In this document: one piece after another, positions 26,348 to 61,086 of the stretch
Layout of the letters: every line of letters begins with the position of its first letter
Numbering within the stretch: position 1 is the stretch's first letter
DNA from: an uncultured Alphaproteobacteria bacterium
GTDB lineage: Bacteria > Pseudomonadota > Alphaproteobacteria > Micavibrionales > CSBR16-224
Length of the DNA: 64,000 nucleotides
Direction of reading: 5' to 3'
Assembly (NCBI GenBank): GCA_950054485.1
Contig: CATLPD010000001.1
Coordinates: forward strand, 716,121-780,120
Program-made: the position numbers and the translations under genes
Notes under the pieces: generated by a model
Seen by the model: only the letters and a program-made list of their open reading frames with translations
Database searches by the model: none
Told to the model about the DNA's origin: nothing

Positions 26348-26352
26348 GTGAA

Positions 26353-26370
26353 AAAATGGAGCGGTGAAGG
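26353..26370 (-). repeat. att site (duplicate of tRNA-Gly 3' end, 1-nt deletion)
   Basis: AAAATGGAGCGG-TGAAGG vs AAAATGGAGCGGGTGAAGG at 35777-35795. Confidence 0.88.
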
Positions 26371-26433
26371 TCTCGAATTTTATTTTCCATGCCCTTGAAT
26401 TTATTTGATATTAACTGTTTCAAACTTTATTGG

Positions 26434-26453
26434 TGCCCCCATATGTGCCCCCA
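26434..26453 (+). repeat. Integrase arm-type sites (distal end)
   Basis: TGCCCCCA x2 with 12-bp period; same arrangement at 35649-35668 and an inverted copy at 35617-35624. Confidence 0.75.
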
Positions 26454-26466
26454 AGTGGTAAGAATT

Positions 26467-26958
26467 TTATTCATTGGTGGCTTTTTTCATTAAAGTGCAA
26501 AACCAGATTACCAATAAAATTAATACACTTCTAGCCTCTAAAGACTTTACTTTTTTAGGGTCTTTACCTGTTATTTTTGCTGCGCTTTCGTAAGACTTGT
26601 GAAAAATTTCTCTGTCTTTGGTGGATAAAGACTTTAATAAGTTGTTGTACTCTCCAGCGGTAACTTTAAAAGCCCTGTTATGAGCCACGTTATTCCTAAT
26701 GCTTTGCAATGTTTTGGCGAGGCTTAAGATCCGACTGCCTAAGGGACTGAGGTAACAACGGACTAAAGCTAATTTTTGCTCAAAGTTTAATCTTGCGATA
26801 TTGTTCCTGCTTAGGAGCTCCCCATCAATGTTTGGAACGCAAGTTCTTAAAACCTCCTCAATAGCTTCTTCAATAATTAAAAAGCTTTCAATTATCAATT
26901 GTCTATCATCTAGGTCTTTTAGGTAATCATTTATTTCTATGCTATCTAAAATTTTCAT
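26467..26958 (-). CDS. HEPN-like protein
   Basis: Helical protein with IRNNVAH (RNxxxH) motif and N-terminal IIEE. Confidence 0.6.
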   Translation of the reverse strand: MKILDSIEINDYLKDLDDRQLIIESFLIIEEAIEEVLRTCVPNIDGELLSRNNIARLNFEQKLALVRCYLSPLGSRILSLAKTLQSIRNNVAHNRAFKVTAGEYNNLLKSLSTKDREIFHKSYESAAKITGKDPKKVKSLEARSVLILLVIWFCTLMKKATNE

Positions 26959-26983
26959 CACCAAAGCGTTAAATTAATTATCA

Positions 26984-27691
26984 TTAATCATTATAGTGAG
27001 ATTGTATAAAATTGTTAACTAAAGTGTCGAGCTTTTCAAAGAACGCTATCAATTTGTTAAATAGGAGGTCAATGAAAGCTGGTTTTATTGATATGTAATC
27101 AAAATACGTGCCTAAAGTATCTGTCTGCTCTACAAATCTTCTTAATTTATTGTTTTCTTCTGTGGGAATACGCCCACCGCTATGAACTAGAGAGTTTCTT
27201 AGCTTATTTAAATGTCTAATAAAGCTCCATTCATCAGATATTTCATTAACTGGTATTTTAGCGACTTTTGACAAAAATGTTCCCGCGCGTGTAATGCCTG
27301 TGTCTGATAGGTCCTTTAATTTCACACTGCTATCAATGCAATTTTCTAAGATCCAACATAACTCATTTAATTTGTTTTCTAAAAAGCTGTATACAGCCAT
27401 CACAAATGCGTTTCTATGAACATTTGGATATTTGATTTGGTTTTCATGTAAACTGAGACTGTAGTTCTCTATAATATCATCATGCTCTGGCTCAGGTGCT
27501 TGTTCTAAAATTTTATCGATTTTATTTTGCAACTCTTCGTCTTTTTTTCTCCAGAAATTTTCTATTTCATTGTGATAATATTTCAATTCCCTAAGCTCAT
27601 TTGCGGCATGATGGCAATGCCCACACAATCCGTTACCGAAAAAATCTATCTCTGTCACAGTTGCTCCTTTAACCTTAAAAATTTTCGTCAA
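26984..27691 (-). CDS. HEPN-like protein
   Basis: YSFLE..L..LC helix and LRNSLVH..G (RNxxxH) motif; TTG start. Confidence 0.65.
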   Translation of the reverse strand: MTKIFKVKGATVTEIDFFGNGLCGHCHHAANELRELKYYHNEIENFWRKKDEELQNKIDKILEQAPEPEHDDIIENYSLSLHENQIKYPNVHRNAFVMAVYSFLENKLNELCWILENCIDSSVKLKDLSDTGITRAGTFLSKVAKIPVNEISDEWSFIRHLNKLRNSLVHSGGRIPTEENNKLRRFVEQTDTLGTYFDYISIKPAFIDLLFNKLIAFFEKLDTLVNNFIQSHYND

Positions 27692-27898
27692 ATTAAACTT
27701 AGCCGCTTTAAAAGCGGAGGGGGGGGACCCCCAAAGTCGTAATAATATTTCTTAATAAACTACCCTTTCAATGTAGTTTAATTTTTGAAATCAAGTATCC
27801 AGTAATGTCCAACTATGCTTTCGTTAATAATTGTGTTAATAAAAATAAGTTATAAAGATGCCTTATAAAATATAATTTTTGTGAGGACTAGGATAAAG

Positions 27899-28435
27899 AT
27901 GTCATCAAAAATATTAGATATAGAAAGTCATATTGCGGAAATAATAGCATCAGAAAAAGAAGTTCTGGGCCAGCCAGCGTGGCAAAAGGTTTCTAGTAAG
28001 CAAGATTCTTGGCAATTAAAAGCTTCAGTAAGGGCGAAAATAGAGACAGATTTTAAGCTTTCAATTGTATTGGACACCAATGTTAAATGCCCTTTCCAGC
28101 GTGGGTCAATTATTTTGACTTGCAGTTCAGCACCTATTGAGAGGATGGAGCACTGCAACAGGCGTCAGCACGTAAATAAGCTTGATAAAGCAGTTCCAAA
28201 ACATTTAAGAGGGCTTGATATACCACCTGATATATGCCGATATTATTCGTGGGATAATAATAGAAGATATAAATGGCCTAATGCCTCTAGACCACTAAAT
28301 TTACCTGTAAGTGAGCCGATAAGTGAGCTAAACACAAAATTATTTTTTGATAGCGTTAAATATTTCTTAAAAAGAACTAATTTAAAATTAGAAGTACCTG
28401 ATTTACACTATGATGCGAGGTTGGGTCTACAATGA
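27899..28435 (+). CDS. Hypothetical protein (DUF6978-like)
   Basis: IERME..H.N motif, FLKRTNL C-terminus, ATGA overlap with the next gene. Confidence 0.6.
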   Translation: MSSKILDIESHIAEIIASEKEVLGQPAWQKVSSKQDSWQLKASVRAKIETDFKLSIVLDTNVKCPFQRGSIILTCSSAPIERMEHCNRRQHVNKLDKAVPKHLRGLDIPPDICRYYSWDNNRRYKWPNASRPLNLPVSEPISELNTKLFFDSVKYFLKRTNLKLEVPDLHYDARLGLQ

Positions 28436-29205
28436 ACTGTGATATAGAAATTAAAAGAGCTTTAGAAAAGCTTCATGCCTGCGATATTCTTGAGGGTGCT
28501 CAAAGAATATCAACAACCTGTTTGTACCCGGACGGTGCTAGAGTAACGCTGTTTGCATACAGGACACATAAAAACGCAGAATTTGTAGTCACTGATGATG
28601 GAGATGCCTACGAGGTCCTCAGATCATATGGTATTGACACTATTTCAAAGTATACGAAAACGGCACATGACACGGCTAGCAAATTCGATATGAATTTCAA
28701 TAAAGAGCTAAGTAACTTTTATTCAGACCCCGTAACTTCTGAAATGCTGCCAGCTACTATCGCATATCTTGCTAATTGTGTTCAAAAATTTGTTCAGCAG
28801 ATTAATGATAAAATGGAGCTAGAAAATGAAAAGGATATTCGTGAAAGAATAGATGAGTGCCTTGAAAGCTACCATTTAATTCCAGAGCGTAATATTGTGC
28901 GAGATTTTGAGATTATTGGAGATAGCGGAAAGACTCATAATTTTTCTCATGCCATCTTAAGAGAGGAAAGAACTATTCTAGTATCTCCTGTTAGCGACCA
29001 TCATGCATCGATTGCTCCAGCTTATATGAAATTCAATGACGTATACACTCAAAACCCAGATTACAAAAGGGAGGCTGTTATATCTAATGTGTCAGCATGG
29101 GGATCAAATAATCTGAATTTGATCGAAAGCGTTGTTGATAATGTGAATTATATTGAAGAAAAAATGAAGCCGTTCATGAAGAGATATGGATATCTTCAAA
29201 ATTAA
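28432..29205 (+). CDS. DUF1828/DUF1829-like protein
   Basis: ISTT.LYPDG....LF and VTDDGD (DUF1828-like); IIGDSGKTHNF (DUF1829-like). Confidence 0.7.
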   Translation: MNCDIEIKRALEKLHACDILEGAQRISTTCLYPDGARVTLFAYRTHKNAEFVVTDDGDAYEVLRSYGIDTISKYTKTAHDTASKFDMNFNKELSNFYSDPVTSEMLPATIAYLANCVQKFVQQINDKMELENEKDIRERIDECLESYHLIPERNIVRDFEIIGDSGKTHNFSHAILREERTILVSPVSDHHASIAPAYMKFNDVYTQNPDYKREAVISNVSAWGSNNLNLIESVVDNVNYIEEKMKPFMKRYGYLQN

Positions 29206-29264
29206 TTATATTTTTCAATATTTTATATGTACCCCTTCCTAAATCTGTATGGTATTATGATACC

Positions 29265-29621
29265 ATGGATCAAAGCCCCAAAAAACGTGCTGAAAAAGCC
29301 TTTAAAGTCACTTCTCTTAAAACCTTTCTGAGAAACCAAGGAAAGGCTGACAAGGGCAGTGAGGATGTCTTGCGGCGGTGGATACATGACCATGAGCTGG
29401 TCGAGTTTCTATTAAGGGCTGTGAGCGGGGAGGTTTTTAACAACCAGCGTTTAAGTTTGCGTGATCGTTGCAACTTGGCTACCAAGCTTCTCAATAAAAC
29501 ACTTCCTGACATGAAAACTGTGGAGTGTATTCAGTCACCCTCAGATAGCCCTGATGCGGTCACTTATCAGGCAACCCAAAACTTGCTTCAATCCGCTTTG
29601 AACCTGCCTAATAAAGATTGA
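29265..29621 (+). CDS. Terminase small subunit-like / phage DNA-binding protein
   Basis: R...A.KLLNKTLPDMKTVE motif resembles small phage packaging proteins; satellite context. Confidence 0.5.
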   Translation: MDQSPKKRAEKAFKVTSLKTFLRNQGKADKGSEDVLRRWIHDHELVEFLLRAVSGEVFNNQRLSLRDRCNLATKLLNKTLPDMKTVECIQSPSDSPDAVTYQATQNLLQSALNLPNKD

Positions 29622-29652
29622 ATTTCTTAGCATAATTAACGTATATTGGTTT

Positions 29653-29849
29653 TAGGTAAGTGATCGGCTTACTTGGGGCTTGATAACCTCTAACGAGCGG
29701 CCAACAGCATCTGGCCGTAAAAATGATGCTGCTTTCTCGATTAAGTTCGGGATGGCAGCGAAATAAAATAGCGCACTGCGTAAATACGCTGTGCCGTCTC
29801 GTTACGGTTATCAACATCCCGAGCACCAGAGCGATCTGGTGTTTTTTTT
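29653..29849 (+). ncRNA. Candidate highly structured ncRNA
   Basis: TTGAAT-18-TATATT promoter; long closing stem 29673-29701/29793-29822; internal hairpins; terminator GCACCAGA-GCGA-TCTGGTGT-T7. Confidence 0.6.
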
Positions 29850-29869
29850 CTTACAGGAAGGGAAGGTTT

Positions 29870-30262
29870 ATGATCGAGAATAATTCCAAAGATAAAAGAG
29901 AGGAAGTTGCGGCCAATGAAGCCGCATTGAAACTACTTCTAGTAAATGGAGAGATTAAAGAGCTTGAAGCACGTAGACGCGCTGTAATTGGAGTAGGGGT
30001 TTTTGCGCTATTTGTTGGGCTGACTTTTAATTCTTACTTGAGGTCACCAATAGAAGAATTCTGGTGGATTCTGGGTTTTCTAGCGGCGGTCTTATTCTTT
30101 TTTATATGGGAGAATGGGAAATCTATAGATAAAAAAATTAGTTTAAAATTTGATTTTGAGCAATTGATCAAAAAATACGGTTGGGATTTTTCTTACAACG
30201 AAAATAATTATAGAGTTGAATTTAAGCCTTTAAGGACATCTAGACAAACGGACACCCCTTAG
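29870..30262 (+). CDS. Hypothetical two-TM protein
   Basis: ATG 29870 after GGAAGG; two hydrophobic helices. Confidence 0.6.
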   Translation: MIENNSKDKREEVAANEAALKLLLVNGEIKELEARRRAVIGVGVFALFVGLTFNSYLRSPIEEFWWILGFLAAVLFFFIWENGKSIDKKISLKFDFEQLIKKYGWDFSYNENNYRVEFKPLRTSRQTDTP

Positions 30263-30292
30263 GGGGCTGTCTTGTCTTGTCTTAAGGTTGTC
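30230..30292 (-). other. Iteron/palindrome cluster, putative satellite origin and detached 3' end of the helicase gene
   Basis: GACA repeats around GACACCCCTTAGGGGGCTGTC; minus frame reads DNLKTRQDSPLRGVRLSRCP*. Confidence 0.5.
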
Positions 30293-30295
30293 GGA

Positions 30296-31207
30296 TTATA
30301 TTTTATCGCCTTTGTAAAAGTATCCTTTATTAAAAGAGCCAGCTTTTTCACGCTTTTTATACATGAGGTCAAAAAACTCTGATTCTGATTTACCTTTGAG
30401 GCGTGCAATACTTACTATTACCTCTGTCATGTCTGCGAGTTCTTCTAAATCATATTCATCCAAAAACTCACGATATTCTTCTGACAGCTTCTCGTACAGG
30501 GCATTTAGGTGCTGTTTAGGAGATAATTCAGAAATGTCAGGGTCTCTGCCTTCTTTACGAATAATATCTGGTATCTTATCTCGAACTAACTTATTTGATT
30601 TTTTAAAGTCTGTGTTATCTCCCGCTCTTTTGCCGCGATTGCAAGAGGCACATAAAACTTGAAGATTTTCTTTTGAGTGGACATCAATCCATATTTCGTC
30701 TTTGCGGACTTTACCTTTCTGGGCAAGCGATTGGGGAACAATGTGATCAATCTCTAAGGGTGACAAGCTAGATGTAATGCCACATAATTGGCAACGCCCA
30801 CCAGATTCCTTTAATAAGATATAGCGAATTGATGAATCTACGCTCGGGTCACCCTCTCGGTTTTGTTTTTCAATCCATTCACTCATAGCAGCCTCGCAAG
30901 CTTCTATGACACTTTCGCGATATTGTTTTGATACAGAGTAGTTTTTCAGTCGAAACGATTTTAATGTCTTATCGTATTCTATAACGCCATGTTTAAGTAG
31001 CGTCTGTTTAGGATACCTTTTAACAATGTTTTCGTAATACTCAACGGTTGAGAGATCATGTTTAGCAAACGCTTTGGCTAAATCTCTTATTGTGCACTCC
31101 CCGCCATGCTCAATTAACTCACGTATAATTAAGGGCTGATAAATTGCGCTCATCGACATTCGATTATTCACAAACTCTAATAAGTCAGTTTCATTATTTT
31201 TCGTCAT
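30296..31207 (-). CDS. wHTH-HNH endonuclease fused to MazG-like nucleotide pyrophosphohydrolase
   Basis: MS.IYQP..I..L...GG N-domain; CQLCG, EIDHIVP, NLQVLCASCNRGK HNH; KLVRDKIP..I, KL.EE..EF, EELADM.EV, KR...G.F. Confidence 0.85.
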   Translation of the reverse strand: MTKNNETDLLEFVNNRMSMSAIYQPLIIRELIEHGGECTIRDLAKAFAKHDLSTVEYYENIVKRYPKQTLLKHGVIEYDKTLKSFRLKNYSVSKQYRESVIEACEAAMSEWIEKQNREGDPSVDSSIRYILLKESGGRCQLCGITSSLSPLEIDHIVPQSLAQKGKVRKDEIWIDVHSKENLQVLCASCNRGKRAGDNTDFKKSNKLVRDKIPDIIRKEGRDPDISELSPKQHLNALYEKLSEEYREFLDEYDLEELADMTEVIVSIARLKGKSESEFFDLMYKKREKAGSFNKGYFYKGDKI

Positions 31208-31247
31208 TCGATTTTCTATAAGGTTTGATTAATCCAATCTTAATTGC

Positions 31248-31913
31248 CTAAATTTTTGGGTCGGGCGTTTCAATTAAATCTACCGTTTGAATTAAGCCTT
31301 TGGTGTGTAAGTCCGTGATCGCACTTTTGCCAGAGCTTATAAGCAGATCAACATAGCTATGAAAGCTTTCACCACTTGAAGTTCCATCGGCCTGCCACAC
31401 AGTATTTCCATTGCTCAAGTCAATAAGAAGGGATTTTGTAGCCATTATAGGCTCACTTGTTGTGTACCCACCTGTTGTGTAGCCCGGGCTTGTGTATGTG
31501 TTTACAGTTGCAAAATTACCGTAACCTGAAATATAGCTAGTCGTTGTTCCTGCGTGGTAAGTTGGAGGTACAAAGCTTTCTATTTCAGATTTTTCTCCGA
31601 CCATAGTAATAAACAAGCTATCTGCGCCTGTATCTTTAATTATTTTAGCGGCCTCTTTTTCACTGTAATCTCTAGTTGGAGGAATTAAATCTGTATATTT
31701 AATAGCGTCCACGCCTAATGAGCTAAATTTCTCCACCAAAGCGGTTTCGGCTGACAGTACTTCTTTTAAAGTAGCCCCATCAATTTTCACCACAGTTTTG
31801 GTAATTTGGTATCCGCCATCGCTGTAGTCAGGATCAACGAAACTTGTCGTGTCAGACATTACGCATGCTGTTAGCAATAAAACCGATACTAAACAATATG
31901 AAATAATTCTCAT
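31248..31913 (-). CDS. Lipoprotein
   Basis: Lipobox LLTA-C; LIDLSNG.TVW DUF4136-like C-terminus. Confidence 0.75.
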   Translation of the reverse strand: MRIISYCLVSVLLLTACVMSDTTSFVDPDYSDGGYQITKTVVKIDGATLKEVLSAETALVEKFSSLGVDAIKYTDLIPPTRDYSEKEAAKIIKDTGADSLFITMVGEKSEIESFVPPTYHAGTTTSYISGYGNFATVNTYTSPGYTTGGYTTSEPIMATKSLLIDLSNGNTVWQADGTSSGESFHSYVDLLISSGKSAITDLHTKGLIQTVDLIETPDPKI

Positions 31914-32076
31914 TATATCTCCTTTGAAAGCAATTATGTCTTCTAATTAATGGTGGCAATGTACGAGTTTATAGTTTTCTTTTTTATAAACCCTAGGCCT
32001 GTAGGCTTAAAATTATCCTATACATTTTGTATTTGAAGAGCAATTTAGTAATTCAGCATATCTGGCAACCCATGCT

Positions 32077-33114
32077 TTAGGATTTATGGTTTGGTATCCA
32101 GATATAATCACCATAAGTGGCGGTGACCTGTTTCTCATTTAAGCTATCAATAGCTCTTGAAACAGCCTTTCGCACGCTGGATATGTTTTCGGATGCAGAG
32201 ATATTGTTTTTCTCTAAAGCTTCTCTAAAGTCGCTCACCATCACACAATTTTGTTTGGGCATTCCATTTTTTGGCGAATAAGGCTTGGATTTTTCAATTA
32301 TCAAGTCGTACAAAATATCAAGTGCCCGTTTTGTCTGTCCATTAAGACGGGTTTTCTTTCCTGTTAGCGTGTCTCGGCCTTTTACAAGAGCGCAAGACGA
32401 TATTTTGTCGCCATCTGCATCAGTGCCCAAATCAATAACTTTAAGGTTAAAAGTCATGGAAATATCTTTTTTGCCATCGCGCTGTTTACGGGTTTTAATG
32501 GTGAGGTCGCCTGATTTGTTTTGAACTTCGATCTCAGTATCAACCGCCGCTTTTAATGAGCTATGGCCTCTCGCACCTTTGCCACTATCCTTGCCACTAT
32601 GGTGAACAATCAACACGTGAGCTTTCGTATTCTCTCGTATTTTGTCACAGTTTCGGACAAAAGAACCCATGTCACGAGAAGAATTTTCATCTCCCCCAGA
32701 CATCGCTCGATTTAGGGTGTCTACAATGATAAGTGAAAAAGCCCCAAGTTTTTGAACGGCATCTATCAGCCGATCTGTATCGGTGCTGTCTTCGCCACAT
32801 AAATCAATTCCTGAGGGCAAAATATAAAGCTCTCCCTTTGATTTGAGTTGGTGATGTATCTCAAAGGCTCTTAGCCTCTCCCCAATGCCCAAACCGCCTT
32901 CGGTAGCAATATATAAAACAGAGCCTTGTTTCGATTTCAGTCCTTGCCAATCCATCCCTGTGGCAATATGTGCGGCAATATCTAATACAAAGAATGTTTT
33001 ACCGCTATTGCTCTGGCCATAAACTACGCTAAGGGCGTTTTTATCTAGGAGTGATTTTACTAGATATTCTTTTTTTGGTAGCTTGTGAAGGTCTTTCCAG
33101 TGTGTGATTTTCAT
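32077..33114 (-). CDS. RepA-like SF4 helicase (AAA_25)
   Basis: GQSNSGKTF Walker A, YIATEG, IIVDTL Walker B, GDEN, VHHSGKD, ARGHSSL..AVD. Confidence 0.9.
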   Translation of the reverse strand: MKITHWKDLHKLPKKEYLVKSLLDKNALSVVYGQSNSGKTFFVLDIAAHIATGMDWQGLKSKQGSVLYIATEGGLGIGERLRAFEIHHQLKSKGELYILPSGIDLCGEDSTDTDRLIDAVQKLGAFSLIIVDTLNRAMSGGDENSSRDMGSFVRNCDKIRENTKAHVLIVHHSGKDSGKGARGHSSLKAAVDTEIEVQNKSGDLTIKTRKQRDGKKDISMTFNLKVIDLGTDADGDKISSCALVKGRDTLTGKKTRLNGQTKRALDILYDLIIEKSKPYSPKNGMPKQNCVMVSDFREALEKNNISASENISSVRKAVSRAIDSLNEKQVTATYGDYIWIPNHKS

Positions 33115-33129
33115 GCTGAGCGCCCCCCT

Positions 33130-33516
33130 TTACAAAATTGAATGTTCATTGGAAGGGTAGACGACGGGGAGATCTCCTTCTTTTCTATATTTAATATCGA
33201 AGCCGATATTTAGATATGAAACTGCACAATAAACATGAAAGAAATGAATTCCTTCTTCTTGATCGTATGTTCTATTTGCCCACTTAATTACAGAATACAT
33301 GTGAGCGAGTTCTTGACCATTTCTAAATTTGCCTTGGGGAGTGATTATTGACTTTAGGAATGTGATTGCCTGAAGGGTGTGGTGGTGCGATTTGCGACCT
33401 AGAAGGTAAGGCTCTTCGGTTATATCTCTTTTTTCTCCTCTGTAGCCCGACAGGGACAAGTGAGGCTCTTCTTCAAGTATTTTCAAAACAAGTTCTTTAT
33501 ATGCTTCGTATTCCAT
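33130..33516 (-). CDS. Hypothetical satellite protein
   Basis: ATG 33516 after SD GGAGG within the alpA end; between alpA and helicase. Confidence 0.65.
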   Translation of the reverse strand: MEYEAYKELVLKILEEEPHLSLSGYRGEKRDITEEPYLLGRKSHHHTLQAITFLKSIITPQGKFRNGQELAHMYSVIKWANRTYDQEEGIHFFHVYCAVSYLNIGFDIKYRKEGDLPVVYPSNEHSIL

Positions 33517-33517
33517 T

Positions 33518-33715
33518 TTATACCTCCACACCGTTGATTTTGTGTTCAATCCATAAATCAATATCAGCTTCAAGCCAGCCCACAGCTTTTTCACCTAAAG
33601 AAATTTGTTTTGGAAAAGTATTTTTCTGGATGAAAGAATAAATTGATGATCTAGAGAGCCCTGTTCTTTCTATTACTTCGGGAAGCCTTAATATTCTTCT
33701 GTTTTGTTTTTGCAT
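33518..33715 (-). CDS. alpA: AlpA-family regulator/excisionase
   Basis: RILRLPEVIERTGLSRSSIY..I....FPK.I.LG.KAVGW. Confidence 0.93.
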   Translation of the reverse strand: MQKQNRRILRLPEVIERTGLSRSSIYSFIQKNTFPKQISLGEKAVGWLEADIDLWIEHKINGVEV

Positions 33716-33803
33716 TTTTAGCCTTTCTTGGTTCTGTTAATAACTCAACATATCCAAGCGGCTATCCCAGTAATATAAGTCCAGTAATAATTGGGAAAAA
33801 AAA

Positions 33804-34448
33804 CTATAAAATTGGTTTCTCTCTATAAAAACTGTTTATAAGGCTCTTAATTTCTAACTTCTTCTGGGGTGATGCAAGGCTGTAATCTATGGAAAGTAGC
33901 CTCATTTTAGCCTTTGAATAACGATTTTGAAGTTTTTTTAGCGTGTCTAAGGAGTCTCGCATTTCGGGAAGGCCTTTCCAAGGATGGCTCTCAATTATCT
34001 TTGCCAATGCCGCTTTATCGCTAATTTTAGTGTCTTGCTGCTTAATCTCATCTACATCAATAAATAATTTGGCGTATAATAACTCGTCCCACACAACTCT
34101 ACGCCTTTTGGGGTTGTTGAATTTAACCTCAAATCCTCTAATGAAATCACAGGCTATATCTAATGCGAAATTATGTAGGGACTTTGTAGAGGCGTATCCA
34201 TAATAGTCTTGCAATATAAGAAGTTTTCTCAAGCGTTCTTTTTTAATATGAGTTGCTATTCTTTTTTCCCACTGATCACGCGCCTTCTTCATGTCGGCAA
34301 GAATTTTTATAAATATGGCGGCTCTATTGTTTTCAGAAGTCCCTAAAGCACTTTTAAAACAATTAAGAAAGGGAGTGGAATCAAACATGTCTATGCTAAT
34401 TTCTTTGTATAATTCCTCTGGTAGCTTGCTATTTTTTCGCTTGCTCAT
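33804..34448 (-). CDS. Hypothetical satellite protein
   Basis: 214-aa basic ORF overlapping the integrase 3' end. Confidence 0.65.
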   Translation of the reverse strand: MSKRKNSKLPEELYKEISIDMFDSTPFLNCFKSALGTSENNRAAIFIKILADMKKARDQWEKRIATHIKKERLRKLLILQDYYGYASTKSLHNFALDIACDFIRGFEVKFNNPKRRRVVWDELLYAKLFIDVDEIKQQDTKISDKAALAKIIESHPWKGLPEMRDSLDTLKKLQNRYSKAKMRLLSIDYSLASPQKKLEIKSLINSFYREKPIL

Positions 34449-35616
34449 CTATATAATCTGCCCATTCTTGCATCATAACTCTACGTTCATCTAGAAATTT
34501 AGCTCTATCGTATGCGCGCGTAACCATGCTTTTAGCGGCGTGTGCCAGTTGTCGATCAATAACCTCGTGCCGGTAACCAAGTTTTTCTTTGATTGCGCTC
34601 ATGGCTAAGGCTCTAAAACCGTGACCTGTCATGCGGTCTTTGAAGCCTAACCTATGCAAGCCCATTCTTATTGTATTATTGCTCATATGTTTGCGTGGCG
34701 AATGATGGCCTGGCAATATCCATTCCCACTGCCCATTCATCTCCTTTAAGTCGGTTAGAATTTCTACGGCTTGTCTTGATAGCGGCACGATGTGCTCTTT
34801 ACGCATTTTCATGCGCTCAGCAGGGATAATCCATTCTGCTTCTTCTAGATTGAATTCTGACCATTTTGCTTCAATTAGCTCTTTTGTTCTTACAAAAGTT
34901 AGCATGAGAAGTTTCATGGCGTGGCGAGTCTCTAACCGAAGGCATGCTTCGTTACGTTCCATAGCTGACAAGAGTTCTGGTAATTCATCAATCGCAATGC
35001 AGGGATAATGCTTTCTAACTATTGGTTTTATGGCTTCTGATAGCTCTGAGGCAGGGTTGTACTCGCAATATCCGTGGGCGATGGCATATCTGAATATTTG
35101 CCCACAAGACTGGCGCATTCTATGCGCGGGCTCTATCGCGCCTCTTTTCTGTATGCGTTCTAGACAATTTAGAATTTGCGGGGGCTTAATATCTGTTATT
35201 GGAAGGTGACCAATTTGGGGGAAAATATCACGTTCTAGTCGGCCAAGTACGGTTTTTGCGTGTCGCGCTGTCCATTTGGACTTAATGTTTTCATGCCATT
35301 CGCGAGCAATAGCTTCAAAATTATTCTCAGCATTTTGCTCTGCTAGGCGTTTCTTTTCCTGTTTGTAAAGCGAGGGGTCGATATTTTGATCAAGAAGTCT
35401 TCTAGCGTCTGTGCAACGATCATCCGCTTCTTTGAGGGATATCTCGGGATAAACACCTAGGGCAAGACGCTTTTCCTTGCCGTTTATACGGTATTTCATA
35501 CGCCAATATTTGCTTCCGTTGGGTCTGACCTCAAGGTAAAGGCCGCGCCCAACCGCTAATTTATAAGGCTTCTTTCTAGGTTCAGCATTCTTACACTGCA
35601 GATTCGTGAGCTTCAT
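34429..35616 (-). CDS. P4-type tyrosine integrase
   Basis: Arm-binding domain GLYLEV.PNGSKYWR; catalytic R (FVRTKE), HGFR, LAH, AY. Confidence 0.96.
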   Translation of the reverse strand: MKLTNLQCKNAEPRKKPYKLAVGRGLYLEVRPNGSKYWRMKYRINGKEKRLALGVYPEISLKEADDRCTDARRLLDQNIDPSLYKQEKKRLAEQNAENNFEAIAREWHENIKSKWTARHAKTVLGRLERDIFPQIGHLPITDIKPPQILNCLERIQKRGAIEPAHRMRQSCGQIFRYAIAHGYCEYNPASELSEAIKPIVRKHYPCIAIDELPELLSAMERNEACLRLETRHAMKLLMLTFVRTKELIEAKWSEFNLEEAEWIIPAERMKMRKEHIVPLSRQAVEILTDLKEMNGQWEWILPGHHSPRKHMSNNTIRMGLHRLGFKDRMTGHGFRALAMSAIKEKLGYRHEVIDRQLAHAAKSMVTRAYDRAKFLDERRVMMQEWADYIDEQAKK

Positions 35617-35780
35617 TGGGGGCATCACCTTTGCGTTGTTGAAGTATATGCCCCCACCAGTGCCCCCAAATATTGTGGATTTGGCAACATCTCATTGGAT
35701 GGCTACAGATTAATTATACGCTGAATCCCTTAATAAATAAAGAAAAACTGGACTGTTTAGGATTTTATTGGATGAGAAAA

Positions 35781-35855
35781 TGGAGCGGGTGAAGGGATTC
35801 GAACCCTCGACTTCAACCTTGGCAAGGTTGCGCTCTACCCCTGAGCTACACCCGC
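35781..35855 (-). tRNA. tRNA-Gly(GCC)
   Basis: Reverse complement GCGGGTGTAGCTCAGGGGTAGAGCGCAACCTTGCCAAGGTTG...GTTCGAATCCCTTCACCCGCTCCA. Confidence 0.97.
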
Positions 35856-49811: not shown

Positions 49812-50352
49812 GATGCTGCTCCTTTCCGTTTTCGTTAAAATATTTGCGAACCTCGTGCAGACGCCAGCTGACGGTTGCTTCACTGACGCCGAGTATTTCT
49901 GCGGCCTCTTTATGGGTCAGCCCCTCCCAACAGACCAGAATAACGGCATCACGCAGTTTTTCGGGCAGGGTGTCGATAACCTCCAGCGCCTGACGTGTCT
50001 GCATCTGTTTTTCCTGATTATCAGGCGCGGCGACCATCAGTGCATCTTCAAACAATAGGCCCTCGCGGCTGTTCTGGCGGTTTTTCTTTTTCAAATAGTC
50101 TTTGGCCGTATTGATAACCAGGCGATACAGCCATGTCGTAAAGGCCGAATCAAACCGAAAGCTATCAATATTCCCTGCCAGTTTGATACAGGCATCTTGT
50201 GCGATATCTTCAGCGTCCGATTTCACGCCCACATATTTATAGGCCATTTTATATATGGTTATATAATGGCGTTCGACCAGCTGAGAAAATGCGTATGCAT
50301 TGCCGCCGGCGGCTTCGCGTATCAACTGTTCATCTGTCATCTCATCATTCAT
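49804..50352 (-). CDS. ECF RNA polymerase sigma factor
   Basis: DAEDIAQD, FTTWLYR..IN, LP...R, EAAEILGVSEATV.WRL. Confidence 0.92.
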   Translation of the reverse strand: MNDEMTDEQLIREAAGGNAYAFSQLVERHYITIYKMAYKYVGVKSDAEDIAQDACIKLAGNIDSFRFDSAFTTWLYRLVINTAKDYLKKKNRQNSREGLLFEDALMVAAPDNQEKQMQTRQALEVIDTLPEKLRDAVILVCWEGLTHKEAAEILGVSEATVSWRLHEVRKYFNENGKEQHHG

Positions 50353-50473
50353 AACAGGCCTATTTTCAGATAAGACGATCAAAACAGCAAGAACCTTTGA
50401 AAATTTATTCAGGTTTACATTTCGGCTTGTTCTGGTTAATATGCAAAACAATTCAAATATAACGAGGTTTAAA

Positions 50474-50917
50474 ATGTCGCAAAAACTTGGTACACGTGTT
50501 GTTGTTCAGCTTAAAGATGAATTCGCCAAGGCTGTTAATAAAAACGGCCTGCAATATGCAAAAAATAAAGAACTGGATGCTTTAAAAGCGGTTCTGGAGG
50601 GTGAAAAAGCAACTTTGACCAATGTAATGCGTGATTTCGAATATTACGTGCAGTCATCTGATGCCCATGGCGCAGCCGAAAGCCCGATGATCAATTGGAG
50701 CCGTGATGCAACAACCAGCGAGCGTGCAAAAAGCTATTACGGATCTAAATTTGTTGTCACATGGGGGGCAGGTACCAAGGTTGTTTCTGAAGACGTCGCC
50801 GAGCGCATCAAAGATAAAATCGCAGAATTGGAAGGCCAAGGCGCTGTTGAAAAAGTTCGCGTTGATTCTATGGACCCTGCCAAGAACCCGCCGATTCCGC
50901 CAAAGTATTTCAAATAA
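50474..50917 (+). CDS. Hypothetical protein
   Basis: ATG 50474 after SD GAGG; backbone-like codon usage. Confidence 0.75.
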   Translation: MSQKLGTRVVVQLKDEFAKAVNKNGLQYAKNKELDALKAVLEGEKATLTNVMRDFEYYVQSSDAHGAAESPMINWSRDATTSERAKSYYGSKFVVTWGAGTKVVSEDVAERIKDKIAELEGQGAVEKVRVDSMDPAKNPPIPPKYFK

Positions 50918-50924
50918 ATACATA

Positions 50925-51683
50925 TCAGCGTATAAGAACGGTATAGTAGAAAACAGCATTTGTGCAGCTTCCTGACCCGAATGCTGCGTATTGGCATGTG
51001 CAACCGGCTGGTTTACCAATAAGGGCCCCACCTGCCTGATCGCCGATGGCATGCGGCCAAGGTTGTATCGTGCTGTCAACATAATCGCCCTGAAAGTACG
51101 TATTCGGTCCTGGCTGCGTTGATGTAAAAGGATCAAACGGAACATCGCCCGAAGGGTTATCGTTATCCAGCCCCTCGTTTATTGCAAGACATACATCCTT
51201 ATTCACAAATTCAACCTGTAAGACAAGGTCGTTTTTATTGTCATCCCCTATGCCTTGCAAGGTTGCCGGCCAGAAATTAAAGTGGCTCTGGGCCGGAGGT
51301 AAGCTTATGTATGTATATTCCTGATCTTCATATACTAAATGAGGCACATTTCCGCCATTTTGGTGAAAAACATGACAGCTTAAGTCACTGGGGGAGGTCG
51401 GATTATTATTTATATCATCTGTATCAATATATGATCCATCATCGTCGAAATCATGGTTGAAAGATATATCGGTCTCTGAACAGCCATTTACAAGCCGAAG
51501 GCGCGTTACTGCATTTTCAATTTGTGTTGCATATTGCAGTAATTGCGAGGCAAGCAATGTCGCTTTTTCTTTGTCGATATTGCCACCACCGCGGCTGCTG
51601 GCTGTAATGGCATATGAAAGTGCTGCGAACAAAGCCACAGCAATCAAAATCAAAAACAATGCATTTCCGGAAGCATTCTTCAT
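50925..51683 (-). CDS. Type IV pilin-like protein
   Basis: Short leader, G|NALFLILIAVALFAALSYAI hydrophobic helix, C-terminal cysteines. Confidence 0.75.
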   Translation of the reverse strand: MKNASGNALFLILIAVALFAALSYAITASSRGGGNIDKEKATLLASQLLQYATQIENAVTRLRLVNGCSETDISFNHDFDDDGSYIDTDDINNNPTSPSDLSCHVFHQNGGNVPHLVYEDQEYTYISLPPAQSHFNFWPATLQGIGDDNKNDLVLQVEFVNKDVCLAINEGLDNDNPSGDVPFDPFTSTQPGPNTYFQGDYVDSTIQPWPHAIGDQAGGALIGKPAGCTCQYAAFGSGSCTNAVFYYTVLIR

Positions 51684-51822
51684 TCTTTAAATATAAAACA
51701 AAAATATGGCAAAAATAAGGCATTTTCTTGGAATGATCTTTCAGCTTTCCAATTTAGTGGAAATCCGTATGTATAATGGCTATTCTGAAACTGATTGTGT
51801 ATGACTAAAAAAGTTTTGATAA

Positions 51823-53037
51823 ATGCTTCGTGAAAATATCCTGGAAAGAATTTATTTTATGTGTTGGGTGGTTATTATCCTCTCAATTCCAATTCTAGGA
51901 AACGTTTCAATAACGACGCTCAGCTTTGCCGTTTTTATATTGGGTCTGATCAGCTGGTTGTATGCCCTTTTAAAAGGCGGCAAAAATATCTGGCAGGTAA
52001 TTATAAACAGCCCTTATTTTTATATTGTCTTATTAATCATTGCTGTTTTGTTTTTATCATCTTTTGCCAGTGTGGATCCGGGTTATGTTATAAAACGTGC
52101 AGCTAAAGTATCCGCCATACTGGTGTTCGCAAGCGGATTTTTTGTTGTTATGCCTTATGTGCGGCCAATAGTAAGCCAAACTACCGTTCGTTTTTTGCCT
52201 TGGGTGTTGGGGGCCACGGCTCTGGTTATGTTGGTGGAATATTTCTTTCAATATCCTTTATATAGTTTCGTCCGTGGCGAGCCATCAGTCTTAACAAAAT
52301 TGCATGAACTGAATCCATCCGCTGTCTTGCAAACGCTTTTGATTTGGCCGATTTTGTTGATATTTTACCATCACGAAATAGATAGAAAAGCCCTGAGTAT
52401 TGGCTTTTTTATATTAATTTTGGCGGCTCAGTTAATATTATTTTCAAGTCAGGCAGCGCTTTTGGGTCTGGTAGTCGGAGGGTTCGCTTTTCTTTTAACT
52501 GTCTATGCGCCTAACAGTTTTCCTAAGGCAACATTTATATTGATCGGCATTGCGGCTCTTTTATCGCCCGTTCTTGCAGAAATATTATATCAGTGGAAAC
52601 CGCCATTTTTTGAATATCTCAGGTCATCTGCTGCAGCGCCGCAGCGTATTGACATCTGGCATGCGTGCGTCATGCTCATCAAAGAAAGCCCTGTATTCGG
52701 ATATGGGTTGGATGCAACGCGTGTTCATGCCGATAATATTCTCGTCTATACACAAGATTACAAATGGAAAGAAGTGCTGCACCCGCATAACTTTGCCCTG
52801 CAGTTGTGGTTGGATACTGGTGTTTTTGGTGTGTTGTTGTTCTTATCGTTTTTGAAAATTCTTTATAATAAACTCATGAACTTAAATCTGGACGCCAGAC
52901 CTTATGCAATGGGGATTTTATTATCTGTCATCAGCGTTGCATCTGTCGGTTACAGTATTTGGAATGGTTGGTTTTTATCGACTATAATTGTGTCGTCAGT
53001 TTTTGTGATGCTCATTATCGGGCATGCTCGAAAATAA
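51823..53037 (+). CDS. O-antigen ligase / O-oligosaccharyltransferase family
   Basis: Many TMs; RIDIW, P.FGYG, HPHNFALQLWLDTGVFG (Wzy_C). Confidence 0.88.
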   Translation: MLRENILERIYFMCWVVIILSIPILGNVSITTLSFAVFILGLISWLYALLKGGKNIWQVIINSPYFYIVLLIIAVLFLSSFASVDPGYVIKRAAKVSAILVFASGFFVVMPYVRPIVSQTTVRFLPWVLGATALVMLVEYFFQYPLYSFVRGEPSVLTKLHELNPSAVLQTLLIWPILLIFYHHEIDRKALSIGFFILILAAQLILFSSQAALLGLVVGGFAFLLTVYAPNSFPKATFILIGIAALLSPVLAEILYQWKPPFFEYLRSSAAAPQRIDIWHACVMLIKESPVFGYGLDATRVHADNILVYTQDYKWKEVLHPHNFALQLWLDTGVFGVLLFLSFLKILYNKLMNLNLDARPYAMGILLSVISVASVGYSIWNGWFLSTIIVSSVFVMLIIGHARK

Positions 53038-53246
53038 CCGGAGCGGGTTAATCGAGCCTCCAGCCATTCGTGGTATGTCGTAAGCCACTTGAGCGGGCTG
53101 GAAGTCTAGTGGGTTTTCGTTCAATCGGAGATTTGTATACCCTCTTTATTTGAGTTTGATACTTCTTGTAATTTAAAAGTATTAATCATAGAAAACTATA
53201 TCTTCGTTATATTATAATCGTAAAACCATAAGAGGATGGAGCTTTA

Positions 53247-54473: not shown

Positions 54474-54512
54474 ATTCAGAGCGTCTAAATTTTTAATACC
54501 GTGTTTATTATT

Positions 54513-56617: not shown

Positions 56618-57249
56618 GCGGCGTCTTCCTCATCCATATATTTCCGCCAAGATAGGGCCATGTTTACCTCGGAAAGCTTATCAGGTAAAGGCTTAATTTC
56701 CCCCGGAACGCCTATTACAAAACTTTTTGGGGGGACATCTTTTGTCACAACAGCCCCAGCTGCAACAAATGAGTTTTGTCCGATTGTCACGCCGGGACAT
56801 ACAGTGACATTTCCTCCCAAAGTAACGCCATCTTCTATAACCGGTCCTTCAGGTTTATATTGATTGCGCAATTTAAGTGGATAGCGATCGTTTAAAATAG
56901 TCACGCCCGGCCCAAAAAAAACACGGTTGCCGATTTTAACATGCGTTGGAATATAGCAGTTTGTTTCAATCTTTACAAAATTTCCAATTGTGACATTACC
57001 ATCAATTACAACATTTGTACCGATCACTACGTGATCGCCAATTACGGTATTTTCACGAATCATGGCATTGTGGCCAGTTTGAATGTAATTGCCCAGAATT
57101 ACATCTCCGTAAATTATGGTGCCAGCACGAATAACACAATTTTCACCCATTTTAACGGGTTGGCAATCGTCTTTGTATTTTAAACCGACTGTTGCGTCGT
57201 CTTGGATTGTGCAGTTTTTACCGGTTAAATAGTTATTGCTCATATTCAT
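56614..57249 (-). CDS. Hexapeptide-repeat N-acetyltransferase (WbpD-like)
   Basis: Left-handed beta-helix repeats, ND.YP, AGAVVTKDVP..G.P. Confidence 0.9.
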   Translation of the reverse strand: MNMSNNYLTGKNCTIQDDATVGLKYKDDCQPVKMGENCVIRAGTIIYGDVILGNYIQTGHNAMIRENTVIGDHVVIGTNVVIDGNVTIGNFVKIETNCYIPTHVKIGNRVFFGPGVTILNDRYPLKLRNQYKPEGPVIEDGVTLGGNVTVCPGVTIGQNSFVAAGAVVTKDVPPKSFVIGVPGEIKPLPDKLSEVNMALSWRKYMDEEDAA

Positions 57250-57272
57250 ATCTCAATTTTTTTAAAGCTATT

Positions 57273-59593: not shown

Positions 59594-59602
59594 GGTAATT
59601 AA

Positions 59603-61077: not shown

Positions 61078-61086
61078 GGTAATCCT

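Follow-up and report, generated by a model that had tools for sequence, protein, structure and literature searches.

A putative phosphorothioate-reading HNH nuclease with a MazG-like C-terminal domain on a tRNA-Gly integrative island of an uncultured alphaproteobacterium

We describe a 303-aa protein, P0001, that is encoded on the minus strand at 30296..31207 of the window (the whole 64,000-nt stretch of DNA that was analysed) and is made up of three domains in this order: a winged helix at the N terminus, an intact HNH nuclease of the Zn-finger type and, at the C terminus, an all-alpha NTP pyrophosphatase that is MazG-like. Judging from a predicted structure, the N-terminal domain resembles, albeit in divergent form, the sulfur-binding domain (SBD) found in restriction enzymes that depend on phosphorothioate (PT). 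We assign a probability of about one half to the reading that P0001 is a PT-dependent, type-IV-like nuclease, in which a divergent SBD serves as the reader and a nucleotide-hydrolase module has been added. Such a protein probably recognises PT (sulfur-marked) DNA and cuts it; both PT binding and the direction of restriction are what we infer from the evidence below.

Domains of the protein

The gene was delimited by the translation of its open reading frame and by homologues; it starts with ATG and ends with TAA, with the stop codon lying within 30296..31207. In one database, 56 proteins matched P0001 at E<=1e-3, and some 40 of these were full-length, with 40-52% identity and E-values down to 2.7e-89. 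In the other database, 4829 cluster representatives passed E<=1e-3, of which 465 also passed E<=1e-10 and 37 passed E<=1e-30. Every motif quoted in a preliminary description of this DNA was located in P0001, namely MS.IYQP (residues 19-25) and EYY (56-58) in the N-terminal domain, CQLC (139-142), DHIVP (154-158) and N...LC..CN (181-190) in the nuclease, and KLVRDKIP (206-213), EE..E (243-247) and EELAD (255-259) in the C-terminal domain, and all the residues so quoted are invariant across 41 aligned full-length relatives. Because of the homologues and the invariant motif residues, neither the reading frame nor the motifs are due to chance. The three domain calls of that description were also right: the HNH domain passes Pfam, and the MazG-like call is carried, without a Pfam model, by several lines of evidence.

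The HNH nuclease domain comprises residues 119-202 (30602..30853, minus strand; Pfam PF01844, E 1.1e-8), and the same region has a weak GmrSD_C/DUF1524 match in Pfam (E 2.6e-6). Its core, C139..N190 (30638..30793, minus strand), was defined by invariant residues: the catalytic residues and the four zinc-binding cysteines (C139, C142, D154, H155, N181, C186, C189 and N190) do not vary among 41 sequences. Structural comparison by VIA-align matched the HNH domain to Cap5 (7rwk_B, Z 7.5) and EcoKMcrA (6ghc_B, Z 7.0).

The MazG-like domain, residues 203-303 (30299..30601, minus strand), was assigned by motifs and structure clusters, and contains the KLVRD motif (30578..30592, minus strand) and the EExxE..ExxD..E motif (30422..30481, minus strand). 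No Pfam or NCBIfam model matches this domain, even at E<=10. Among 41 sequences, K206, L207, R209, D210, K240, E243, E244, E247, E256, D259, E262 and K285 are invariant, and the metal-binding residues among them (E243, E244, E247, E256 and D259, plus E262) are also invariant in a set of 13 sequences. The acidic motif aligns with its counterpart in 1vmg, 7ody and 7bgm. AF2 predicts helices at 212-218, 230-251, 254-270 and 275-289 with pLDDT 85-98, and comparison with Atlas structures gave TM values of 0.88-0.92 to clusters of NTP pyrophosphohydrolases of around 100 aa, one of which carries PF01503 on 25% of its members. Nearly all matches of the domain profile to the PDB are MazG, MazZ, PRA-PH or dUTPase, albeit weak ones (E 0.059-8). 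Further, the relative P0034 has a precomputed PF01503 assignment, and plasmid homologues are labelled 'nucleoside triphosphate pyrophosphohydrolase' in RefSeq. A helical bundle with an EExxE...ExxD acidic motif is thus common to this domain and to MazG, MazZ, HisE/PRA-PH and DCTPP1-like enzymes, whereas its scores below the Pfam thresholds, its fusion to a nuclease and its membership in a 'KLVRD' subfamily (house-cleaning NTP pyrophosphatase according to the JGI label) set it apart from the rest of the superfamily.

The KLVRD-type module was also found on P0189, which has a different HNH domain, on the NucS-like P0053 (PF01939) and on the Nudix protein P0054. The presence of the module on unrelated nucleases and on a Nudix protein means that its role need not be PT-specific; in P0001, it may deplete or cleanse nucleotides. 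In P0161 and P0187, which combine the N-terminal and MazG domains without HNH, the YQP and WP motifs are lost as well.

The winged helix and its proposed sulfur cavity

The N-terminal domain (residues 1-118; 30854..31207, minus strand) was modelled on its own with AF2 (pLDDT 88.1, pTM 0.83), and this model was compared by VIA-align with 48,161 chains. The SBD fold adds helices at the N and C termini to a winged helix, and four SBD structures occupied ranks 2, 5, 6 and 10: 5zmo_A (Z 8.9, rmsd 3.8, 106 residues aligned), 7ccd_A (Z 8.6, rmsd 3.9, 110 aligned), 5zmm_A (Z 8.6, 114 aligned) and 5zmn_A (Z 8.4, 109 aligned). In Z the SBDs tie with generic winged helices (ORC2, Z 9.0; Cdc6, Z 8.8), and 23 chains reach Z>=8; the alignments to SBD chains are the longest, covering 106-114 of the 119 residues. 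The outcome was the same with the whole-protein model, whose match list was taken up by the N-terminal domain. Foldseek against the PDB, run with the whole-protein and N-domain models, returned no match at E<=0.001 (best E 0.048), and no SBD was present among the best 50 for either model; the matches listed comprised only winged helices of generic MarR or ORC type and the HNH domains of Cas9 or McrA, with no MazG among them.

Sequence methods did not connect the domain to known SBDs. Pfam gave no relevant match to it at E<=10, and single-sequence scans of the N- and C-terminal domains (Pfam and NCBIfam at E<=10, phmmer against the PDB) produced nothing usable. Profiles built from 16 and from 116 sequences had no match in any SBD region when compared to PDB sequences; the profile of 116 sequences reached ScoMcrA (E 0.0049) through its HNH domain only.

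The sulfur cavity of SprMcrA is formed by Y31, Q32, Y78, P79 and A82 on helices 2 and 4 (PMC7470945), the published cavity of ScoMcrA by H116, R117, Y164, P165 and A168, and that of Hga, according to PMC10602919, by H25, K26, L75, P76 and H79 on A2 and A4. The same pattern, an adjacent pair on helix 2 followed by x-P-x-x-x on helix 4, is present in P0001 as judged from motifs and predicted helices (helix 2, residues 23-33; helix 4, residues 55-72). Conservation and the predicted helix point to Y23-Q24-P25 (31133..31141, minus strand), at the start of helix 2, as the putative equivalent of SprMcrA Y31-Q32. On helix 4, Y65-P66-K67-Q68-T69-L70-L71-K72 (30992..31015, minus strand) would correspond to SprMcrA Y78-P79..A82..R85 or, with the published ScoMcrA residues as an alternative reference, to Y164-P165..A168..R171. 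These equivalences were drawn from the order of the motifs and from helix prediction rather than from a superposition. Across 116 sequences, Y23 and L70 are invariant, while Q24, P25 and P66 are conserved in at least 90%; across 41 sequences, W65 (tyrosine in P0001), K67, T69 and K72 are each conserved in at least 90%. The basic residue six positions after the proline is K72 in P0001, compared to R85 in SprMcrA and R171 in ScoMcrA, and the helix 2 and helix 4 motifs are 42 residues apart, compared to 47-50 in published SBDs.

P0001 resembles the SprMcrA/EcoWI-type SBD-HNH enzymes in the order of its parts, with a winged-helix reader at the N terminus and a Cys4-Zn HNH domain after it, in a similar size of reader plus nuclease, and in the predicted Y-Q ... 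Y-P-x-x-A/T-x-x-R/K pattern on reader helices 2 and 4. It differs from them in a shorter reader (about 115 aa versus about 150-165 in known SBDs) that has no detectable sequence similarity to known SBDs, and in the extra C-terminal domain, MazG-like in P0001 or HIT in relatives. In the accessible part of PMC10602919, the partner domains given for 1722 SBD homologues do not include MazG-like or HIT by name. ScoMcrA (SBD-SRA-HNH) has an SBD, to which the N-terminal domain of P0001 gives a structural match (Z 8.4-8.9), and, like P0001, an HNH domain; P0001 lacks both the SRA domain and the head domain at the N terminus, and has a nucleotide hydrolase as its third domain.

Genomic context and alternative readings

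The P0001 gene is the solitary cargo of an integrative island of roughly 9.4 kb, inserted at a tRNA-Gly(GCC) gene (35781..35855, minus strand; ARAGORN). At the far end of the island, the 3' end of tRNA-Gly is partially duplicated as an att repeat (26349..26377), detected as a 16-nt direct repeat with 94% identity; the partner is found at about 35773-35803, and the repeat extends with one indel. The island encodes a tyrosine integrase (34429..35628, minus strand; Pfam Phage_int_M 6.8e-37, Arm-DNA-bind_3 4.6e-25, Phage_integrase 2.8e-21), and the PADLOC candidate-system gene PDC-M24B (E 3.7e-12) lies beside the P0001 gene. Searches of the island with Pfam and PADLOC found no dnd or pbe genes, and the host genome (99.99% complete) had 0 matches to DndE, DndC or SspD. 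Such an absence is what one would expect if the enzyme is of type IV, and is a feature shared with the PT-dependent enzymes of the SprMcrA/EcoWI type, whose hosts also lack dnd.

The preliminary description proposed a single-gene system. This fits the window, where P0001 has no conserved partner (among the island ORFs, only the integrase clusters with neighbours of relatives), but one in three of the closest relatives is part of a multi-gene Dnd/Pbe locus. The PADLOC check that it recommended assigned the protein to no known system: 12 weak matches at the level of the HNH domain (PtuB, PtuA, Cas9; best E 3.6e-5) were all that was returned. A literature search found no description of a sulfur-reading nuclease with a MazG tail, although the supplementary datasets of PMC10853773 may list this architecture. 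An HNH-MazG defence fusion was not found in titles and abstracts; nothing was found joining HNH, a HIT domain and phosphorothioate, and nothing relevant joining a sulfur-binding domain with a pyrophosphohydrolase.

The family was confirmed at 461 loci in one-genome-per-species data, distributed patchily over many phyla. Among 80 species-level loci, we distinguished the following architectures: (i) N-HNH-HIT, 47 loci; (ii) N-HNH-MazG, the P0001 type, 12 loci; (iii) bare N-HNH, 17 loci. These numbers bear out the statement in the preliminary description that the N-terminal and HNH unit is more often fused to HIT. In the sister proteins, the HIT domain sits where MazG sits in P0001, and the large HNH+HIT clusters share the N-domain fold of P0001; at some loci, a stand-alone MazG-family gene is located next to N-HNH-HIT.

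Most of the family is solitary, with no dnd or pbe gene nearby in 69 of the 80 loci, including 45 of the 47 HIT-type ones. Genes of dnd and/or pbe lie within 7 kb at 4 of the 12 N-HNH-MazG loci and 5 of the 17 N-HNH loci; the two adjacent HIT-type loci have DndB-like genes only. In locus L083, the order is dndBCDEA-pbeA-pbeC-small ORF-Orf5-family gene, all on one strand. The same dnd-pbe modules, ending in an N-HNH-HIT gene, were found in L094, from a background genome that was not picked for the family. In L018, the family gene follows, on the same strand, dndE and a 480-aa ORF, and L009, L014 and L006 likewise have it in or adjoining dnd-pbe arrays. The gene of about 480-547 aa between dndE and the family gene had no match in Pfam, PADLOC or the PDB. 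DndE was detected in 13 of 50 family-carrying genomes and in 5 of 12 MazG-type genomes, versus 21 of 401 genomes in a phylum background sample, where only 8 of the 21 matches were at E<=1e-19. A SAD_SRA search for ScoMcrA-type proteins in 58 genomes yielded one short SRA-HNH only, and 14 further dnd loci contained no ScoMcrA-type protein; such genes often lie directly downstream of dnd genes according to PMC10853773.

This context leads to the foremost alternative, to which we give about half the weight of the main reading: P0001 would be a PT-sensing, self-sparing Dnd/Pbe effector with a logic like that of SspE/DndI. The SBD-like domain would read host PT, modulating NTP hydrolysis by MazG and releasing or silencing the HNH nuclease, with the result that cleavage is confined to invader DNA lacking the mark. 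The copy in the window would be an orphan that arrived recently with the island and is either silent or reliant on PT in trans. No MazG-type enzyme is known to act as a conformational switch, which counts against this possibility. According to PMC7461809, Lutz et al. expected and found fewer than 3.6% of PT-dependent enzymes near dnd; the MazG-type clade, with its strong positive association with dnd, shows the opposite, which favours a self-sparing PT sensor in the hosts of that clade. The same association distinguishes the closest relatives from SprMcrA/EcoWI-type enzymes. In PMC10853773, wHTH(SBD)+SAD+HNH nucleases downstream of dnd were proposed as alternative restriction components, and DndI and SspE join PT sensing, NTPase and nickase (PMC11662687 and PMC9646914). 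P0001 would similarly sense PT, hydrolyse nucleotides and act as an HNH-type nuclease within one polypeptide, has the weak GmrSD_C/DUF1524 match as a further point in common with SspE and DndI, and is, through its relatives, linked to a PT-defence gene context; its solitary state also has a parallel in that 58% of PbeAC pairs are solitary (PMC6459918). Against this, the host lacks dnd and ssp modification genes, although the gene is intact and retains all its catalytic residues; most loci, as described above, have no dnd or pbe neighbour; and PT-DNA is cleaved, not spared, by all the SBD-HNH enzymes characterised so far (PMC7461809 and PMC10602919). Neither the sensing nor the NTPase domain is homologous to its SspE/DndI counterpart, no DUF262/ParB-like domain was found in P0001 by Pfam or PADLOC, and a pyrophosphatase would take the place of the ATPase or GTPase. 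The likeness to SspE/DndI is at most a functional analogy, and we do not claim membership.

A generic form of the model in the preliminary description is less probable still. Here, the winged helix would read a non-PT modification or DNA in general, MazG would deplete or cleanse (modified) dNTPs, and the adjacency to dnd would reflect the clustering of defence islands, the protein being a nuclease combined with nucleotide-depletion defence. The tie of the SBD match with generic winged helices and the lack of an SBD by sequence methods are consistent with such a reader, as are the recurrence of the KLVRD-type module on P0189, P0053 and P0054 and the other type IV nucleases that adjoin relatives (HNH_2 proteins similar to PDB 6yex in 8 loci, SRA-HNH in 3). 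The HNH_2 neighbour was considered as an SBD-HNH and rejected, for it matches 6yex, 'HNH endonuclease', with E 5e-27; we take 6yex to be EVE-HNH. In the PUA-Cal-HAD system, a MazG-like enzyme replaces the dNTP-depleting effector (bioRxiv 10.64898/2026.01.15.699771). Conversely, six positions that match published cavity and backbone-contact residues of SBDs, on the correct helices by motif and prediction, are the most conserved of the N-terminal domain. The adjacency to dnd/pbe is specific (11 of 80 loci, versus 3 for any one of the other recurring systems except HNH_2, with 8) and in operon-like order, and DndE is enriched genome-wide.

Finally, a selfish HNH of the homing type, or a nuclease/pyrophosphatase with housekeeping duties outside defence, is a very improbable identity for P0001: HNH domains are common in homing endonucleases, and 7 phage records match the HNH part, but the three-domain protein is absent from 50,697 phage records, with no match reaching 80% coverage, and the gene is island cargo beside PDC-M24B in a family with a patchy distribution and restriction contexts.

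Proposed mechanism and significance

In the preferred reading, P0001 as a PT-dependent nuclease, the winged helix would bind the PT sulfur in a small hydrophobic cavity around P66, together with Y23, Q24, Y65 and T69, and K72 would contact the DNA backbone, while the Zn-finger HNH domain would cleave the DNA held by the reader. The targets would be incoming PT-marked plasmids, islands or phage DNA; the host has no PT-writing genes, and its own DNA should therefore be unmarked. The preliminary description had the nuclease steered by the sensing of phage (modified) nucleotides. That idea is not supported; on the evidence, it is rather the N-terminal domain that would confer specificity, for PT-DNA, an option that the description did not raise.

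The MazG-like domain would be an active (d)NTP pyrophosphohydrolase. We infer that its job is most likely to hydrolyse nucleotides tied to the restricted DNA, for example thio-dNTPs derived from degraded PT-DNA, the removal of which would keep sulfur from being written into host DNA. A tentative extension, which we regard as rather doubtful, is that the C-terminal hydrolases of the whole family are thionucleotide sanitisers that make PT-directed restriction safe. Breakdown of PT-DNA would yield dNMPS, kinases would turn dNMPS into dNTP-alpha-S, and polymerases would write the latter back as PT, so that the host's SBD-HNH nuclease would turn on the host itself. Splitting of dNTP-alpha-S into dNMPS and PPi would fall to the MazG-like domain, and the HIT domain of the sister proteins would desulfurate dNMPS to dNMP and H2S, as does HINT1, a HIT enzyme that converts (d)NMPS to (d)NMP and H2S according to PMC8775712. 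The likeness to HINT1-type HIT concerns the N-HNH-HIT sister proteins, as P0001 itself has no HIT domain. Sanitising would explain both the interchangeability of HIT and MazG and the stand-alone MazG-family gene beside N-HNH-HIT.

SBD-HNH enzymes are, to our knowledge, the only known readers of the PT mark in DNA, and they serve as tools for PT mapping and for the separation of PT stereoisomers. If the preferred reading is correct, P0001 and its relatives would represent a large, sequence-divergent SBD branch that was missed by published SBD surveys and in which coupling to a nucleotide hydrolase (HIT or MazG) is systematic, tying the restriction of backbone-modified DNA to nucleotide-pool chemistry. 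The family would also be a recurrent terminal gene of Dnd-Pbe loci, which bears on the paradox of PT readers beside PT writers. Should the hydrolases indeed act as sanitisers, the family would provide the first case of a restriction enzyme that carries its own step of nucleotide-pool cleansing.

The three-domain protein and its exchangeable third domain

The target gene (30296..31207, minus strand) encodes 303 amino acids, and every motif quoted in the preliminary description was found in the translation at the residues assigned to it; the domain anatomy proposed there, i.e., an N-terminal domain, an HNH domain and a MazG-like domain, is correct. At E<=1e-3, one database contained 56 relatives, about 40 of them full-length with 40-52% identity, and in a scan of 1.84 billion representatives the target matched 4829 (E<=1e-3), 465 (E<=1e-10) and 37 (E<=1e-30). 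In one-genome-per-species data, the family spans many bacterial phyla and Nitrosopumilaceae archaea. The whole three-domain protein was not found in 50,697 phage records, seven of which match via the HNH only, none at 80% coverage or more.

An alignment of 41 full-length relatives contains three blocks of invariant columns: (i) Y23, Q24, P25, Y57, Y58, P66, H73 and Y78 in the N-terminal domain; (ii) C139, C142, D154, H155, N181, C186, C189 and N190 in the HNH domain, comprising the four cysteines and the D-H...N...N residues; (iii) K206, L207, R209, D210, K240, E243, E244, E247, E256, D259, E262 and K285 in the C-terminal domain. The HNH domain is recognised by Pfam (PF01844, E 1.1e-8), with GmrSD_C also above its cut-off. 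No Pfam or NCBIfam model matched the C-terminal 100 residues even at E<=10. Nevertheless, five lines of evidence agree that this domain is an all-alpha NTP pyrophosphatase: nine relatives carry the JGI label 'house-cleaning noncanonical NTP pyrophosphatase (MazG superfamily)', and one has a precomputed PF01503 match; the acidic motif EExxE...ExxD is invariant; a 13-sequence profile of the domain retrieved 10 PDB sequences at E<=10, all weak (best E 0.059), of which eight, aligned on the acidic motif, were deposited as MazG, MazZ, PRA-PH, dUTPase-family or nucleotide pyrophosphohydrolase; residues 200-303 of the Atlas model superpose on stand-alone 'nucleoside triphosphate pyrophosphohydrolase' clusters of about 100 amino acids (TM 0.88-0.92); and the plasmid-borne RefSeq homologues, 16 records matching in this domain only, are named nucleoside triphosphate pyrophosphohydrolase. 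The same KLVRDKIP module was also observed on an HNH nuclease of another kind whose N-terminal domain differs as well (P0189), on a NucS-like PF01939 nuclease (P0053) and on a protein with a Nudix domain (P0054); it is mobile and has been repeatedly joined to nucleases.

Local profiles were used to classify the best 80 of 461 confirmed loci in the one-genome-per-species data. The third domain was HIT in 47 loci (N-HNH-HIT) and MazG in 12 (N-HNH-MazG, including one gene cut off by the end of its contig and one with a frameshift); another 17 encoded N-HNH with no recognised third domain, and no N-domain ORF was found in the remaining four. This comparison of architectures bears out the earlier statement that the N-HNH unit is more often fused to HIT. 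Pfam detected HIT in 22 of 92 cluster representatives, and the N-domains of Atlas HNH+HIT clusters (401, 110, 71, 62 and 53 members) superpose on that of the target with TM 0.75-0.91. In four loci from about two lineages, three of the four from Nitrospirota, a stand-alone DCTPP1-like MazG-family gene of the PF12643 type is co-oriented with N-HNH-HIT: L076:1856-2203 (20 nt upstream of the N-HNH-HIT gene), L059:4913-5395 (PF12643, E 1.3e-5), L070:362-712 and L079:4441-4791. Two broken genes, perhaps the result of decay or of faulty assembly, were also seen: a frameshift-split MazG-type gene in a Chloroflexaceae MAG (L023:7016-7895) and a 112-aa HNH-MazG remnant (L010:509-847) adjoining an intact dndBCDE cluster, dnd being the genes that write phosphorothioate (PT) marks on DNA.

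The N-terminal domain as a candidate sulfur-binding domain

Sequence methods gave no match for the N-terminal domain. Both the whole-protein model (pLDDT 86.3) and the model of residues 1-119 (116 sequences, pLDDT 88.1, pTM 0.83) show a predicted winged helix to which a further helix at the N-terminus and a long one at the C-terminus are added. In structural alignments, the latter model matched chains of sulfur-binding domains (SBDs), which read PT, at Z 8.9 (5zmo_A, 106 residues aligned), 8.6 (7ccd_A, 110 residues), 8.6 (5zmm_A, 114 residues) and 8.4 (5zmn_A, 109 residues). These alignments are the longest in the list but not decisive: generic winged helices equal them in score (ORC2, Z 9.0; Cdc6, Z 8.8; 23 chains with Z>=8). 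The whole-protein model gave the same SBD picture, plus the Hga SBD at Z 7.1; the Foldseek top 50 contained no SBD.

According to three structural studies, the sulfur cavities of solved SBDs combine an adjacent residue pair on helix 2 with x-P-x-x-x on helix 4 (PMC6224610, PMC7470945, PMC10602919). These residues are H116, R117 and Y164, P165, A168 in ScoMcrA, with R171 at P+6 (PMC6224610); Y31, Q32 and Y78, P79, A82 in SprMcrA, with R85 at P+6 (PMC7470945); and H25, K26 and L75, P76, H79 in Hga, where P+6 is T82 (PMC10602919). The proposed cavity of the target consists of Y23, Q24 and Y65, P66, T69, with K72 at P+6, and is thus identical to SprMcrA at four of five cavity positions. Y23 and Q24 are at the start of predicted helix 2 (23-33), and Y65, P66 and T69 lie on predicted helix 4 (55-72); most relatives have W at position 65, and the two motifs are 42 residues apart, compared to 47-50 in the solved SBDs. 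The putative cavity residues are the most conserved of the domain: among 116 sequences, Y23 never varies, and at least 90% share Q24, P25 and P66. We infer the equivalence of these residues from their order and from the predicted helices. It should be noted that the SBD assignment, for which the support is a fold match tied with generic winged helices, a motif match at six positions and gene context, is the weakest link of the argument.

Gene neighbourhoods of the relatives and of the target

Neighbours of the 80 loci were clustered, and recurring ones were identified with Pfam and PADLOC as DndE (PF08870, E 1e-44), DndB (E 1e-135 to 1e-165), DndC (PADLOC, E 1e-197), DndD (E 1e-208), DndA/IscS (E 3e-123), PbeA (E 8e-199), PbeC (up to E 2e-267) and the SspE-like 'Orf5' (E 8e-175), pbe being linked defence genes. 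Genes of dnd and/or pbe lie within 7 kb of 4 of 12 MazG-type loci, 5 of 17 N-HNH loci and 2 of 47 HIT-type loci, the last two with a DndB-like gene alone; these 11 loci represent about five or six lineages, with two Pseudooceanicola, three Sphingomonadales, two Rhodobacteraceae and two Mycobacteriales, and therefore do not count as 11 independent events. The other 69 loci have neither nearby, so the family is mostly solitary. The gene order of the linked relatives is operon-like. For example, a Sulfitobacter locus (L083) carries, on one strand, dndB-C-D-E-A, pbeA, pbeC, a 166-aa ORF, Orf5 and the N-HNH-MazG gene; L018 carries dndB-C-D-E, a 480-aa ORF and the target homologue, all co-oriented; and L094, from a background-sample genome picked independently of the family, has the modules of L083 ending in an N-HNH-HIT gene. 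DndE was found in 13 of the 50 family-carrying genomes searched (L051-L080 left out), compared to 21 of 401 sample genomes of the window's phylum (only eight at E<=1e-19), a rough comparison because the samples differ in taxonomy.

Several unrelated dnd loci have, directly downstream of dndE, a gene of 480-547 aa (L009:7614-9257, L018:5504-6946, L081:10133-11596, L088:10291-11757), which lies between dndE and the target homologue in L009 and L018 and has no match in Pfam, PADLOC or PDB. By clustering, an HNH_2 protein of about 285 aa adjoins the N-HNH-X gene in eight loci (L002:8719-9576, with cluster members in L019, L025, L035, L042, L070, L076 and L079), its C-terminal half resembling the PDB 6yex 'HNH endonuclease' (E 5e-27), and short SRA-HNH genes adjoin it in three; type IV-like nucleases seem to occur in groups.

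The target itself lies in a stretch with GC of 0.35-0.40, compared to 0.44-0.49 in the flanks, bordered by tRNA-Gly(GCC) (35781..35855) and, at the opposite end, by a partial copy of its 3' end (from near 26349), and encoding a tyrosine integrase, an AlpA-type regulator and an AAA_25 protein; these features make it an integrative island about 9.4 kb long (26349-35855). The cargo resembles a small defence island: a PADLOC candidate PDC-M24B gene (28432..29205, E 3.7e-12), its upstream partner ORF with a 4-nt overlap (27881..28435), and two ORFs with weak HEPN-type matches (26467..26964 and 26984..27691). Among the clustered neighbours of the 80 loci, no island ORF save the integrase has a counterpart, and thus the target gene stands alone in the window. 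A second long low-GC stretch (0.36-0.42) occupies the window's right end (50000-64000).

A putative reader of phosphorothioate DNA

Experiments have established SBD-HNH enzymes as PT-dependent type IV nucleases (PMC7461809, PMC6224610, PMC7470945, PMC10602919), and, according to Lutz et al., fewer than 3.6% of them lie near dnd clusters (PMC7461809). The 2024 reappraisal of Dnd describes, in 698 taxa, wHTH(SBD)+SAD+HNH genes that closely follow dnd on the downstream side, and proposes that they serve as alternative restriction components; its main text, as available, contains no 'MazG' and one 'HIT'-prefixed word, with no domain context in its passages (PMC10853773). The partners that the available text of a survey of 1722 SBD homologues names are HNH, SRA, kinase, PD-(D/E)XK and 'unknown', with neither MazG nor HIT among them (PMC10602919), and full-text literature searches did not turn up a description of the fusion.

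No match to DndE, DndC or SspD was found in the window's genome (99.99% complete); therefore, host DNA should be unmarked. The target would then be a type IV nuclease that attacks PT-marked DNA entering the cell, the simplest reading for an SBD-HNH protein on a mobile island in a dnd-less host. We give a probability of about 0.5 to the target being a PT-reading nuclease with a nucleotide-hydrolase module; the SBD-like fold, the cavity motif and the dnd/pbe context led us to adopt this reading in place of the nucleotide-sensing nuclease proposed in the preliminary description. According to the main rival, which we regard as rather unlikely, the N-domain of relatives embedded in dnd/pbe loci would sense self PT by analogy with SspE and DndI; that embedding speaks for it, whereas the solitary state of 69 of 80 loci and the lack of DndE, DndC and SspD matches in the window's genome speak against it.

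The MazG domain of the target may couple nucleotide cleansing or depletion to DNA destruction. This role is suggested by the intact active-site residues, the interchange of HIT and MazG, the linked stand-alone MazG-family genes, the presence of the module on other nucleases, and the chemistry of HINT1, a HIT enzyme that desulfurates (d)NMPS and acts in phosphorothioate oligonucleotide metabolism (PMC8775712). The boldest reading, that the C-terminal hydrolases are thionucleotide sanitisers, is improbable. The two N-MazG proteins without HNH no longer carry the YQP and WP motifs and one HNH-less N-HIT protein retains both, which argues against a PT-specific coupling. The target architecture may, at roughly even odds, be a variant of the known PT-dependent restriction type that carries an extra nucleotide-hydrolase domain.
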